From the sequence record NC_005066.1: DNA of 64,000 bases; one strand, written 5' to 3'. This document shows positions 32,847-62,648 of this stretch, one piece after another. Origin of the DNA: Escherichia phage RB49. The notes beneath the pieces are model-generated. The model saw only the letters and a program-made list of their open reading frames with translations, ran no database searches and was not told the DNA's origin. Made by a program: the position numbers and the translations under genes. The first letter of the stretch is position 1; each line of letters begins with the position of its first letter.

Positions 32847-33434
32847 CTAAATATCTAACCAAGACAAGTCAGATCCGCCCAAGATTTTTTCGACGGCGGA
32901 TCTATTTTCTTGATGATATAAGTTAAAACATGGTATCCCATGTCTACGGGCAACATAAACAGCAATTCGAGTTCCTCCCGAAACAATCCCATTAACTTCT
33001 TTCGCCCAAAATATCACACAATCTACAGGGTCATCAAGTGTCTCACCTAAAACTTGAGCAACATTTCTGGAAAACAGATTTTGCATGTATAACGGTATCG
33101 AACGAGGATTATCATAAACGTGTTCTAATTCATCCATCGCCAGATTTTTTTGTTCTAAGGTTTGCCATGCAATCACATCATGACCGTTATGCTTGTGGTC
33201 ATAAAACTTCCAATTTGGAATGAAAATTTTTCTATAATCTGGATCGTAATACTTCATGAAAGCATTGTCCATACCATAAGCCCCTCCAGAATGCGCTACA
33301 ACGCGATTTTCTGACAATACCCTCCCAATGGTACTAGCCATTATCAAAATGTCGCTAGGCGCTTTTCTAGAGCCTATTAAAGCACATCTACGAAGTGGTT
33401 TTACTCCAAATAGATCTTGTAACTGGTCAAACAT
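32847..33434 (-). CDS. DprA/Smf-like Rossmann-fold (SLOG-type) protein
   Basis: 195 aa; motifs LIGSRKAP, HSGGAYGMD, FSRN, SGGTRIAVYVARRHGIPCF in DprA order; strong GGAGGA RBS. Confidence 0.55.
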   Translation of the reverse strand: MFDQLQDLFGVKPLRRCALIGSRKAPSDILIMASTIGRVLSENRVVAHSGGAYGMDNAFMKYYDPDYRKIFIPNWKFYDHKHNGHDVIAWQTLEQKNLAMDELEHVYDNPRSIPLYMQNLFSRNVAQVLGETLDDPVDCVIFWAKEVNGIVSGGTRIAVYVARRHGIPCFNLYHQENRSAVEKILGGSDLSWLDI

Positions 33435-33586
33435 AATATTTCCTCCATAGAAAGCAATATCATACTACAAGTTAATAACAAATACAAGTATCCGCGTAGC
33501 GGAAGCGAGCACAGCGAGCAATAAAACACTTCTAGTAATTGATTAATAAATGTTCGAAACAAATTTTTATTATTCTATAAGATAAG

Positions 33587-33612
33587 TCTTCGTTTTGATC
33601 ATAATTTAATCA
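33587..33612. repeat. 26 bp direct repeat, copy 1 (TCTTCGTTTTGATCATAATTTAATCA)
   Basis: identical to copy at 33736-33761. Confidence 0.8.
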
Positions 33613-33735
33613 TACATGTAAAAACTACACAAAAGGATATCGCTTCGCGAACTCCTACGGAGTATAACATTTGTGTTACAATATGTAGTGATTAATAATT
33701 AACCAAAGATACATTTTCTATGTTCTAAAGATCTT

Positions 33736-33761
33736 TCTTCGTTTTGATCATAATTTAATCA
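33736..33761. repeat. 26 bp direct repeat, copy 2
   Basis: identical to copy at 33587-33612; flanking ACATGTAAA also shared. Confidence 0.8.
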
Positions 33762-33814
33762 AACAGTATTAATATTGTGCACATGTAAACTAAAATTATG
33801 TTAATAACAGATAC

Positions 33815-33838
33815 AAAAAAGCCGTCCCGAAGGACGGC
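33815..33838 (-). terminator. intrinsic terminator (minus strand)
   Basis: hairpin GCCGTCC-TTCG-GGACGGC then TTTTTT on minus strand, just after stop at 33848. Confidence 0.6.
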
Positions 33839-33847
33839 TAATGTTAA

Positions 33848-34285
33848 TTATTTGTTGATAACGATCTGATTTCGGCGAATGGTAACATTACTCTTAGAGA
33901 TGATCAGATCATCCGGCACTACGTTAGTTTTGTATGGTTGGAAGCGAACAAGCATCTGATTGCGTTTAGACCCTTCCTTAATCTTGATTTCCATCTGGAT
34001 ATTGTTTCCTACGTGAGCAACCGCAATTTCACCTTTATTCTCATAGACCCACTTGCTGGTAACGTCTCCAGCAAAAGCCTTAATAACTTGCAATGCTTCG
34101 TCGTATGCGGTAGAGCTGTGAACTTTCAAAAGGCCAGCCGTAGCAAGACGGGAGCAGGTGATCGCCGGAGATTGCCAAACATCAACATTAATTTGCTCAA
34201 TCAGAGTAACACCGCCATGATCAACTGCTTTGAATGCTTCAAACATTGCCTTTTTCATTGCTACGTGGTTTTTACGGAATTTCAT
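33848..34285 (-). CDS. hypothetical protein (145 aa)
   Basis: ORF with terminator downstream; no recognised motif. Confidence 0.5.
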   Translation of the reverse strand: MKFRKNHVAMKKAMFEAFKAVDHGGVTLIEQINVDVWQSPAITCSRLATAGLLKVHSSTAYDEALQVIKAFAGDVTSKWVYENKGEIAVAHVGNNIQMEIKIKEGSKRNQMLVRFQPYKTNVVPDDLIISKSNVTIRRNQIVINK

Positions 34286-36486: not shown

Positions 36487-37215
36487 TTACTTGAGTGTGT
36501 GGAATTGGCTATGTTTAGTCTCTCGCACCTTGACAGACCCATCGCGTTTGATATAATAGATCAGTGACTTGAGGGTGTCGTGTACATACGCGTGCGGGAA
36601 ACGCTCTGGATACTTCTTCCAATCTGGAGTATTAACGATCCAGTCGAAAATCCACCACGGGCAGGAGTAGTAACCACGACCGCCACCGATCAAGCAAATG
36701 GTCGGACGGAAGCCAGTAAGATCGCAAAATGAATCAGTGTCATGTGCTGGGGAACGATGTTCTGCTTCGTCAGAGAAAATGTTGGCTACCGGAGATTCCA
36801 CTTTAACTTCCGGTACATCTACAACTTCAATTGTAACTGGTACTGTGTGTGGTTTGGCTTCTTCTACAACTTCAATTGTAATTGGTTCTTCTTTTTGTTC
36901 TGGTTCTTTCATTGCTTCAACCAGAGACGGATCAACTTCGTCGAATACCACTTTATCATCTACGGTGTCTGCTGCCAGAATAAGATCGTTAATACTGGTT
37001 CCTTCTGCCGGAGTTTCTTCTTCCATTTCGGAAGCCAGTTTAGTTAATTCGGTTTCTACGAACTCGATCATGTTCTCTAGTGATAAAGTCTTTTTGACCT
37101 TAATATCAAATTGTTTTGCGTAGTCAGCTAATTCTGTTTTAGCTGTTTTCTGTGCTTCTTTGTCGTCGGACGCCGCAATAGCGCGGAGTTCTTCGAAATA
37201 TTCTTTATCAAACAT
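36487..37215 (-). CDS. Inh-like acidic protein with Hoc-like WW capsid-binding motif
   Basis: 242 aa; acidic low-complexity N-terminal two thirds; C-terminal CPWWIFDWI; position of T4 inh next to hoc. Confidence 0.5.
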   Translation of the reverse strand: MFDKEYFEELRAIAASDDKEAQKTAKTELADYAKQFDIKVKKTLSLENMIEFVETELTKLASEMEEETPAEGTSINDLILAADTVDDKVVFDEVDPSLVEAMKEPEQKEEPITIEVVEEAKPHTVPVTIEVVDVPEVKVESPVANIFSDEAEHRSPAHDTDSFCDLTGFRPTICLIGGGRGYYSCPWWIFDWIVNTPDWKKYPERFPHAYVHDTLKSLIYYIKRDGSVKVRETKHSQFHTLK

Positions 37216-62324: not shown

Positions 62325-62648
62325 TTAACCGTAAACTACCACAATATTCTGTTTGTGCGTTACAGTCCATTTCAGGTCGATCTCTTCTTCCTTCTTAACG
62401 CCGTTAATAACGTCTGGATGAGGAACTTTATTCATCTTGCCATGTGGCAGTAAAACAGTTTTACCCAGCAATTCTTTATCTACCGTCTCGCCAATATCAA
62501 TAATCTTACCTACCAGCGGAATCTCACCCATAGTGCGCTTTTGCTCAATAATGATCCCCATAGAGCTTTTTACTTCGGTCCCTGCGCTTTCTGCTTTAGC
62601 TTCGATAATTACATAATCACCAAGTGCTTTAGGAGTTTTAACGGTCAT
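62325..62648 (-). CDS. 31: GroES-like co-chaperonin gp31
   Basis: 107 aa; GroES-like fold features (GDYVIIEAKAE, mobile loop); position as in T4. Confidence 0.8.
   Translation of the reverse strand: MTVKTPKALGDYVIIEAKAESAGTEVKSSMGIIIEQKRTMGEIPLVGKIIDIGETVDKELLGKTVLLPHGKMNKVPHPDVINGVKKEEEIDLKWTVTHKQNIVVVYG

Follow-up and report, generated by a model that had tools for sequence, protein, structure and literature searches.

A conserved hairpin-rich module in the non-coding gap before the DprA-like gene of Escherichia phage RB49: a candidate DNA-level cis element

T4-type phages pack their genes tightly, and a conserved non-coding stretch of 413 bp is therefore unusual. One such stretch lies at positions 33435-33847 of a 64,000-nucleotide segment of the genome of Escherichia phage RB49 (NC_005066.1), referred to here as the window, where it separates the open reading frames (ORFs) 32847-33434 and 33848-34285, both on the minus strand. 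In the direction of transcription the order is an ORF165-like gene, its intrinsic terminator, a pair of repeats, and then the ribosome-binding site (RBS) and ATG of a DprA-like gene. An earlier note on this DNA had drawn attention to a perfect 26-bp direct repeat, TCTTCGTTTTGATCATAATTTAATCA, which is found exactly at 33587-33612 and 33736-33761 on the plus strand, and to a similar segment after each copy, which is also present (ACATGTAAA at 33614-33622 and 33781-33789). No third copy occurs in the window at up to three mismatches, and none appeared in 100 dinucleotide-preserving shuffles. The note had also set the repeats between a terminator and the RBS of the DprA-like gene. Its anatomy stands but its order has to be turned round, since the flanking genes both lie on the minus strand, which puts the terminator upstream of the repeats and the DprA-like gene downstream. 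The length of 26 bp likewise holds for the perfect core, but the true duplication is imperfect and longer (77-78 bp, 78% identity, period 149 bp, at 33540-33616 and 33689-33765). Read on the minus strand, the 26-mer forms the left arm of a quasi-palindrome, AT-rich and 75 bp long, and is the best-kept arm of a non-coding, hairpin-rich module of about 110 bp. The features of the locus, in order of transcription, are as follows.

33848..34285, minus strand: ORF165-like gene, 145 aa, upstream of the gap, with weak winged-helix-like fold matches from a model
33814..33839, minus strand: intrinsic terminator of the ORF165-like gene, hairpin 33839-33820 (AGCCGTCC-TTCG-GGACGGCT), then TTTTTT
33796..33819, minus strand: hypervariable spacer of 24 bp directly past the terminator, bounding the module upstream
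33763-33689, minus strand: repeat unit U2, left arm the 26-mer at 33736-33761, right arm TTTGGTTAATTATTAATCA at 33707-33689 (nhmmer E 5e-14)
33625..33688, minus strand: hairpin cluster H-a, following U2, enclosed by CTACA...TGTAG and holding TAACA-CAAA-TGTTA
33669-33661, minus strand: weak extended -10 candidate TGtTATACT, inside H-a
33663-33651, minus strand: mini-hairpin M1, ACTCC-GTA-GGAGT, inside H-a
33650-33640, minus strand: mini-hairpin M2, TCGC-GAA-GCGA, inside H-a
33614-33540, minus strand: repeat unit U1, left arm the 26-mer at 33587-33612, right arm TTCGAACATTTATTAATCA at 33558-33540 (nhmmer E 6e-11)
33491..33519, minus strand: hairpin cluster H-b, following U1
33505-33519, read on the plus strand: direct repeat GCGAGC-ACA-GCGAGC, inside H-b
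33491-33503, read on the plus strand: mini-hairpin TCCGC-GTA-GCGGA with its GNA loop on that strand, inside H-b
33459..33487, minus strand: candidate sigma-70 promoter P3 of the DprA-like gene, TTGTAT at 33487-33482, N17, TATGAT at 33464-33459
32847..33446, minus strand: RBS (GGAGG, 33446-33442) and DprA-like gene of the SLOG family (ATG at 33434, 195 aa)

Read outward from the centre of a unit, the arms follow the consensus TTTGATYA-WWWW-TTAATCA, a motif that within the window is confined to this gap at up to three mismatches. Each arm contains an 11-nt doublet, TTTRATCATAA, and beyond this doublet no iterons were found in the gap by Tandem Repeats Finder or by a repeat search. P3 directly follows the hairpin of H-b and precedes the RBS and start codon of the DprA-like gene.

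Close relatives, in which the earlier note held that meaningful repeats should be neither absent nor variable, have kept them. The region matches 57 phage records at 95-99.5% identity, every one of them from the genus Krischvirus (RB49, Phi1, JSE, GEC-3S and others), and none lacks the repeats. In Phi1 the gap corresponds to the interval between ORF165 and ORF164, the whole window matching Phi1 65,331-129,330 by offset. Within an alignment of 13 Krischvirus genomes chosen for divergence, nucleotide diversity (pi) in U1 and U2 is 0.016-0.019, with 10 of 154 columns variable, as against 0.050 and 0.067 at the third codon positions of the two flanking genes, where 69 of 342 columns vary. As the diversity of the units lies below that of third codon positions, they are under purifying selection. 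The spacer at 33796-33819 has a pi of 0.17, well above the synonymous level, and is replaced wholesale in G2248; it may represent a recombination breakpoint bounding the module on its upstream side. Identity between the two 26-mers does not hold in every genome, since three positions differ in G2248 and PHB13. Both of these phages have also lost the GATC from each 26-mer (33594-33600 and 33743-33749) by different substitutions, giving GACC in U2 and GAAC in U1, a parallel change at the same position of the arm; a third GATC at 33730 is intact in both. An enrichment of GATC (Dam) sites in the gap was considered and set aside, as three are present and 2.5 are expected.

Outside the genus, searches with the DprA-like and ORF165 proteins identify uncultured relatives at 50-88% amino acid identity (contigs L016, L163, L032/L164, L033/L034, L035, L036 and L166). 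Wherever a contig of these distant relatives covers the whole gap, the interval is non-coding and 326-574 bp long, and even at a DprA-like protein identity of only 50-87% it has a common layout of terminator, unit a, two mini-hairpins, unit b, a GCTCGC-type repeat with a hairpin, a sigma-70-like promoter and the DprA-like gene. Hairpins orthologous to that of H-b show compensatory stem changes in L016, L163, L033 and L036, three unit cores are found in L032, and short T-runs follow M2 in several lineages. Many of the relatives' contigs from metagenomes or the Sequence Read Archive end inside the gap or at its edge (L032, L034, L035, L164, L165 and L166); a tandem repeat fits such assembler confusion, and the element is thus under-represented in contig collections. 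Sequence scans added little: the pattern TTAAANNNTGNNCAAAN{30,60}ATTAATCA proved too degenerate over viral contigs, with only chance matches besides a Krischvirus contig, the 16-mer TTCGCGAAGCGATATC gave mostly chance matches, and a metagenome scan with the DprA alignment contributed almost nothing. L016 has an additional segment of about 150 nt (L016:2280-2440) between P3 and the start of the DprA-like gene, in which a direct repeat (CTAAAATCAATTCT / CTAAAATCGCTTCT) is accompanied by complementary stretches far apart (GGTGATACCCTAAAA ... TTTTAGAGGGTATTGTG); this segment may form a structured leader that is absent from Krischvirus.

The module is also a dispersed family. When a profile built from 15 units was searched with nhmmer against the 164-kb Phi1 genome, exactly four copies were recovered (E 5e-14 to 6e-11, the next match having an E of 3.2). 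All 57 Krischvirus records hold the element at these four places and annotate it at none, and phage records outside Krischvirus gave no match to the unit. Apart from U1 and U2 the copies are these.

Phi1 ~149,925-150,030, co-oriented with gene 36: gene 35/36 copy, flanked by the terminator of gene 35 and a late promoter, TATAAATA
Phi1 ~62,480-62,590, minus strand: gene 3 copy, upstream of gene 3, between divergent late-like promoters

The gap between genes 35 and 36 runs in the order gene 35, terminator, unit, GTGCC-TAC-GGCAC, TCGC-GAA-GCGA, 20 nt, TATAAATA and gene 36. At all three loci the four copies face in the same direction as the downstream gene and lie just upstream of its promoter, and at the two loci that have a same-strand upstream gene the module follows the terminator of that gene. 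The late promoter motif TATAAATA itself is absent from the 33435-33847 gap.

A further copy of the unit is carried by Escherichia coli. A stretch of 76 nt with approximately 82% identity is present in 53 of 5,426 complete E. coli genomes, and the plasmid collection contains no match. In the three strains examined it sits in a non-coding gap of 1.27-1.38 kb of a prophage with genes for terminase and Rha; in strain H2 the gap measures 1.27 kb (L173:3885-5151, NZ_CP028733.1 2553383-2554649), with L175 and L176 arranged likewise. After the unit the H2 gap has GNA mini-hairpins in three pairs, distributed over both strands: AACC-GAA-GGTT with TCCC-GAA-GGGA, CGCC-GTA-GGCG with GCGAAGC, and GCGC-TTC-GCGC with CGGC-TAC-GCCG. 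GTGTAGG iterons number seven in H2 and three in BS74R-D (L175), and the H2 gap also holds a TTGATTAAT-T-ATTAATC box. The T4 late-promoter motif TATAAATA lies about 40 and about 70 nt before the start codons of the two flanking genes, and its three occurrences in the H2 gap compare with approximately 0.3 expected from composition. The gap could be an origin region, or its flanking genes could respond to infection by a T4-type phage. The rest of the H2 gap matches nothing among cultured phages, and the proteins beside it have no family assignment and no similarity to ORF165, for which reason a kinship of ORF165 with the neighbouring prophage gene was discarded.

The history of the copies bears directly on what maintains them. 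The gap between genes 35 and 36 of L172, which belongs to the L016 lineage, also carries a unit, and the centre of this copy is 77-84% identical to that lineage's own units in the DprA gap as against 69% to the Krischvirus copy between genes 35 and 36. The copies of lineage M are 77-86% identical among themselves and 58-69% identical to Krischvirus copies, even at the same locus. As paralogues are closer than orthologues, copies about 50 kb apart must evolve in concert, and between lineages the centre of the unit is replaced wholesale. The earlier proposal of a recombination site thereby gains indirect support, and the identity of the two 26-mers would be accounted for by gene conversion between copies together with a constraint on the arm sequence.

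Taken to its limit, concerted evolution would allow the module to be a cassette of the PeSL kind with no dedicated function, spread and homogenised by gene conversion and unequal exchange and serving as a site for modular shuffling. The greater likeness of paralogues within a genome, the 76-nt copy in an unrelated prophage, the hypervariable boundary directly past the terminator and a copy number that can vary, as with the three cores of L032, all agree with this, and the PeSLs of these same phages have been proposed to mediate such exchanges (PMC2839356). Yet the units are under purifying selection within the genus, the copy number is strictly four in 57 of 57 genomes, and the same three loci and tandem layout persist across lineages whose proteins are only 50-60% identical; nor would a passive scar be expected to display a specific GNA mini-hairpin signature. 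A purely recombinational explanation is for these reasons judged unlikely. Dispersal could alternatively be that of a MITE, a small non-autonomous transposon with inverted ends, which has settled in several intergenic regions and in the prophage, and the imperfect inverted ends (TTGRTTAA...TTAATCA), the scattered copies and the 82%-identical prophage copy are what such an element might show. But there are only four copies, their loci do not vary from genome to genome or in a lineage whose gp36 is 84% identical, and the sites are filled in all 57 genomes and in the divergent lineage. No target-site duplications were noticed in the sequences that were read, although no systematic search for them was made, no transposase partner is evident, and the mini-hairpins lie outside the inverted ends and yet travel with the unit, all of which makes a mobile element very improbable.

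In an alignment of 11 units the long palindrome, composed of the outer TGRTTAA/TTAATCA and a 10-bp inner helix, has 83% of its cells paired, as compared with at most 45% when the partner is slid. Both sides have changed in six of the ten pairs of the inner helix, and the covariation score of 0.25 exceeds that of shuffled alignments (0.117 +/- 0.023), none of 500 shuffles reaching it. An alternative fold into two local arm hairpins is 88% paired and shows hardly any covariation. Under nearest-neighbour DNA folding the same series of hairpins appears in each copy, with z-scores of -2.9 to -3.8 in four of five copies, and folding is equally good on the sense and antisense strands, the long palindrome being without strand bias. 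This equality of the strands fits a palindrome that operates in the duplex, or symmetric protein sites that co-evolve.

The mini-hairpins that accompany the units form a signature of their own. There are 62 G+C-rich triloop hairpins with 4-bp stems in the genome, of which seven fall within the three family gaps (804 bp in all), or 8.7 per kb as against 0.34 per kb elsewhere. The C(GNA)G type, counted on either strand, makes up six of these seven and only one of the 55 elsewhere in the genome (Fisher 8e-7). CTCC-GTA-GGAG, TCGC-GAA-GCGA and CCGC-GTA-GCGG each have the GNA or GNNA loop, C:G closing pair and short G+C stem of the mini-hairpins known in DNA. Across relatives the loops stay GAA, GTA or GATA, and the stems show compensatory changes (ACTCC/GGAGT, AATCC/GGATT and ATGCC/GGCAT; TCCGC/GCGGA versus TCGGC/GCCGA). 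The loops can nevertheless flip in orientation while the stems are kept: M1 has GTA here and TAC in the copy between genes 35 and 36, and TCGGC-GTA-GCCGA in L016 is matched by TCGGC-TAC-GCCGA in L163. Retention of stems while loops flip fits hairpin potential at the level of the duplex.

Features of this kind might also belong to a structured RNA, transcribed in the sense direction by read-through of the terminator or from a weak internal promoter and acting, for example, as an RNase III- or RNase E-type processing site, a structure that stabilises a 5' or 3' end, an attenuator, an anti-terminator, or two small RNAs. The co-orientation of the module with the downstream gene at the three phage loci, the hairpin series common to the copies, the compensatory changes in the mini-hairpin stems and the short T-runs past M2 are all in keeping with a transcript, whole-intergenic RNA folding gives z-scores of -3.0 for this gap and -7.5 for that of L033, and in the local arm hairpins the sense strand has 19 G-T pairs compared with five A-C mismatches. 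Against an RNA stands the position of the module, which is downstream of good terminators and, at two loci, upstream of a late promoter, so that the late mRNA would not contain it; no strong promoter precedes it in this phage either. Folding is no worse on the antisense strand, the loops are turned round from one copy to another, more of the arm sequence is conserved than pairing requires, and the loops are of the GNA/GNNA type of stable DNA mini-hairpins rather than GNRA or UNCG, whereas the phage's own terminators use UUCG. Rfam 15 returned only two sub-threshold, terminator-driven matches (25 and 22 bits against gathering thresholds of 95 and 80), with none in the 35-kb Phi1 segment carrying the copy between genes 35 and 36, and a tRNA-like interpretation of the three hairpins of H-a was abandoned when ARAGORN reported nothing. 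A structured RNA is accordingly regarded as the main rival to a role of the DNA itself, if a doubtful one.

What, then, of promoters, which the earlier note had offered as one identity for the repeats? A sigma-70 position weight matrix was calibrated on the window, in which the 99.9th percentile is 7.0 bits and the consensus early promoters of the phage score 13-16 bits. Two cassettes of typical PeSL type at 34959-34932 and 34387-34360 on the minus strand, each with a terminator hairpin, a T-run and TTGACA-N16-TATAAT, served as internal positive controls; they sit downstream of hoc and upstream of the ORF165-like gene, respectively. The best sense-strand sites of the gap are P3 at 8.8 bits, ACTACA-N17-TATACT with an upstream TG at 7.8 bits and one further site at 7.1 bits, and no antisense sigma-70 site in the gap reaches 7 bits. 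With the best matches of the units no higher than 7.1-7.8 bits as against the 13-16 bits of early promoters, the case for duplicated promoter elements is weak for this phage. An operator function, likewise raised by the note, is conceivable. Desplats and colleagues are said to have reported in 2002 that RB49 has early and late promoter classes only; in the 101 kb of Phi1 that was read motA is not annotated, and inspection by eye showed no MotA-box promoter.

The relatives make a stronger showing. In 11 of 12 units an ATGATC-like hexamer is separated from a central TATAnn by exactly 17 bp, and several of their units match sigma-70 at that register, namely L036a (TTGAAC-N17-TATAAT, 12.4 bits) and L033a and L032a (9.2-9.6 bits). 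The position of P3 is also retained, as TTGTTT-N17-TATAAT in L163, TTGTGT-N17-TATAAT in L035 and TTGATT-N17-TATAGT in L033. On this basis the units could be duplicated promoter and operator modules, with the ATGATC-like hexamer as the -35, the central TATA as the -10 and the arms as repressor operators, which together with P3 would provide the DprA-like gene with three tandem regulated promoters. The arms do overlap the -35 and the stretch past the start site, a common arrangement for operators. However, the Krischvirus hexamer 17 bp past ATGATC is TTAGAA in three of four copies (including U2) and TATAGA in the fourth (U1), both without the critical final T, and the unit sites score about 7 bits or less. 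In two cases the gene that follows is a late one with a TATAAATA to itself, the unit centre is swapped wholesale between lineages, and no repressor candidate is known. Taken together, regulated tandem promoters are decidedly unlikely.

Comparison with known systems helps to place the module. The phages phi1 and RB49 contain PeSL cassettes, repeated intergenic stem-loop motifs of about 100 bp that lie between a stop codon and the next RBS and have been proposed as recombination substrates; a near-consensus sigma-70 promoter is defining, and a genome holds about 52, most of them upstream of ORFans in hyperplastic regions (Arbiol et al. 2010, PMC2839356; Comeau et al. 2014, PMC4122927). Their promoter and terminator activity is the subject of reporter assays in PMC2839356. 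The module shares with them the host phages, the intergenic position and a stem-loop next to the RBS, stem-loops being present as the terminator and at 33663-33640 and 33503-33491, and H-b with P3 resembles the subclass in which the stem-loop is upstream of the -35. It differs in that the Krischvirus units are without the near-consensus promoter that defines a PeSL, since the best sites of the gap score 8.8, 7.8 and 7.1 bits and promoters of PeSL type 13-16 bits. The units, moreover, number four, carry a 75-bp quasi-palindrome and GNA mini-hairpins, and in two cases precede late structural genes. Neither ORF164/165 nor the region of genes 35 and 36 is mentioned in the text of the PeSL paper (PMC2839356).

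The closest parallels to the mini-hairpins come from initiation sites on single-stranded DNA. Mini-hairpin DNA as a class is marked, in single-stranded form, by an extraordinary resistance to heat and nucleases. The motifs GCGNAGC, GCGNNAGC and CCGAAGG occur at the complementary-strand origin of phage G4, in ssiA of RSF1010 and in the early promoters of N4 (PMC13037366, a 2026 review). GCGAAGC, GCGTAGC, CCGTAGG and CCGAAGG, with their short C:G-closed stems, are of the same class as those of G4 and of ssiA and ssiB of RSF1010. The prophage copy much resembles the oriV of RSF1010, in that its paired hairpins, found on both strands, lie beside iterons and an AT-rich segment, although the Krischvirus loci differ from RSF1010 in being without iterons.

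The origins of T4 itself offer a second comparison. T4 oriE lies in the neighbourhood of gp24, hoc, inh and uvsW; it has 12-nt iterons as its hallmark and depends on a promoter of early type (PMC3016281). As multiple dispersed, non-coding cis sites, oriE, oriF and oriG are similar in kind to the module, and the neighbourhood of oriE is that of the present locus. The 12-nt iterons are, however, absent here, and the four copies of the module constitute one sequence family whereas the T4 origins share none; the module has therefore not been classed as an oriE homologue. T4 oriG lies by gene 34, near the copy between genes 35 and 36. An R-loop origin of the oriF/oriG type has a MotA-dependent middle promoter and, after it, a DNA unwinding element, a part that the AT-rich centre of the unit might play. 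Elsewhere in this neighbourhood, the highest-scoring plus-strand site of the window (15.2 bits) is a perfect TTGACA-N16-TATAAT with an upstream TG at 36530-36557, inside the minus-strand late gene inh (36487-37215), to which it is antisense, and directed toward uvsW; it is reminiscent of the early antisense transcription described for T4 oriE/repEA-repEB. The plus-strand ORFs 36698-37123 and 36742-37047 have no PHROG match.

Like the REP/BIME, ERIC and MITE elements, finally, the module is short, imperfectly palindromic, intergenic and multi-copy, evolves in concert and has spread horizontally. It has no sequence similarity to them, its copy number is very low and fixed, and it is found oriented at orthologous loci with GNA mini-hairpins. 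In a full-text literature search, of partial coverage such that an earlier mention is possible, no description of the element was found, nor did the search yield a transcriptome paper for RB49-like phages. The module thus appears to be undescribed, and apparently extends the known dispersed intergenic cassettes of T4-type phages.

The neighbouring genes complete the description of the locus. The terminator of the ORF165-like gene, annotated as such in the G37-3, GEC-3S and Makalu records, has the G+C-rich hairpin and T-run of an intrinsic terminator at 33839-33820, an assignment that applies to the terminator and not to the repeats. The DprA-like protein matches phrog_768 (E 1e-60), and a homologue is annotated as YspA SLOG family. 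In Mosugukvirus PM2, the Klebsiella phages Roth76 and P-KP2 and Bragavirus phiP4-3 (L159-L162) no long non-coding gap precedes the DprA-like/YspA-SLOG gene, which directly follows rnlB (RNA ligase 2) or is separated from it by a few small genes. This adjacency suggests a joint role in RNA repair. Krischvirus has no rnlB at the locus and instead has ORF165 and the 413-bp gap. Coding explanations for the gap were rejected. A 53-aa ORF with a TTG start (33401-33562), like the extended start of DprA in the annotations of SSG23 and UPWr_E1, hangs on a 1-nt indel and is not conserved; a decayed rnlB pseudogene was dismissed because the gap consists of highly structured repeats, no comparison at the protein level having been made.

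The reading that we favour, tentatively, is that the module is a cis element working at the level of DNA, either an origin-like or priming-like site or a site of protein binding. The reasons are that it lies where sense transcription should be lowest, that folding is equal on both strands, that the orientation of the loops is free, that the arm sequence is conserved beyond the needs of pairing, and that the hairpin motifs and the prophage context resemble origins and single-strand initiation regions. The module would then be neither a gene nor a plain promoter but a structure-prone element that is recognised in a sequence-specific manner. Its AT-rich palindrome may be the part that is easily melted or bound by a protein, the extrudable C(GNA)G mini-hairpins may act like single-strand initiation signals, and the two together could mark the start of replication, of priming or of another DNA transaction beside the downstream promoter.

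Several considerations weigh against this DNA-level role. The support for it is all computational, and the covariation of the arms depends upon few independent events, as copies within a genome are homogenised. The excess of G-T pairs in the local arm hairpins hints at a sense strand that is transcribed or single-stranded, many of the cells being inherited rather than independent. The co-orientation at the three phage loci, together with the orientation of the prophage copy toward far plus-strand genes, would be explained more simply by a function linked to RNA or a promoter. The fold matches of ORF165 are marginal. T4-type phages bring their own primase, for which no hairpin requirement is known, and are not known to use hairpin-dependent priming. 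Moreover, the T4 origins have no common motif, and oriF and oriG employ promoter-primed R-loops and not hairpins (PMC3016281).

A bolder version of the DNA-level reading, which we consider improbable, is that Krischvirus and the E. coli prophage-like element share the module as a cis-acting site from which a DNA transaction is launched, and that both have it because one of them exploits or senses the other. The transaction might, for example, be replication priming or a loading of clamps that feeds late transcription, and the TATAAATA before both flanking genes of the prophage would let that element respond to, or hijack, a T4-type infection.

The significance of the module lies in what it offers for this group of phages, namely a concrete and testable candidate cis element, and one with C(GNA)G mini-hairpins, which have otherwise been met with in origins that depend on a primase. 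If it proves to be only a recombination cassette, it would extend the picture drawn from the PeSLs and would explain why metagenome assemblies break here. If it does serve as a start of replication or a site of factor loading, T4-type phages would possess a family of origin-like elements defined by sequence, unlike the situation in T4.

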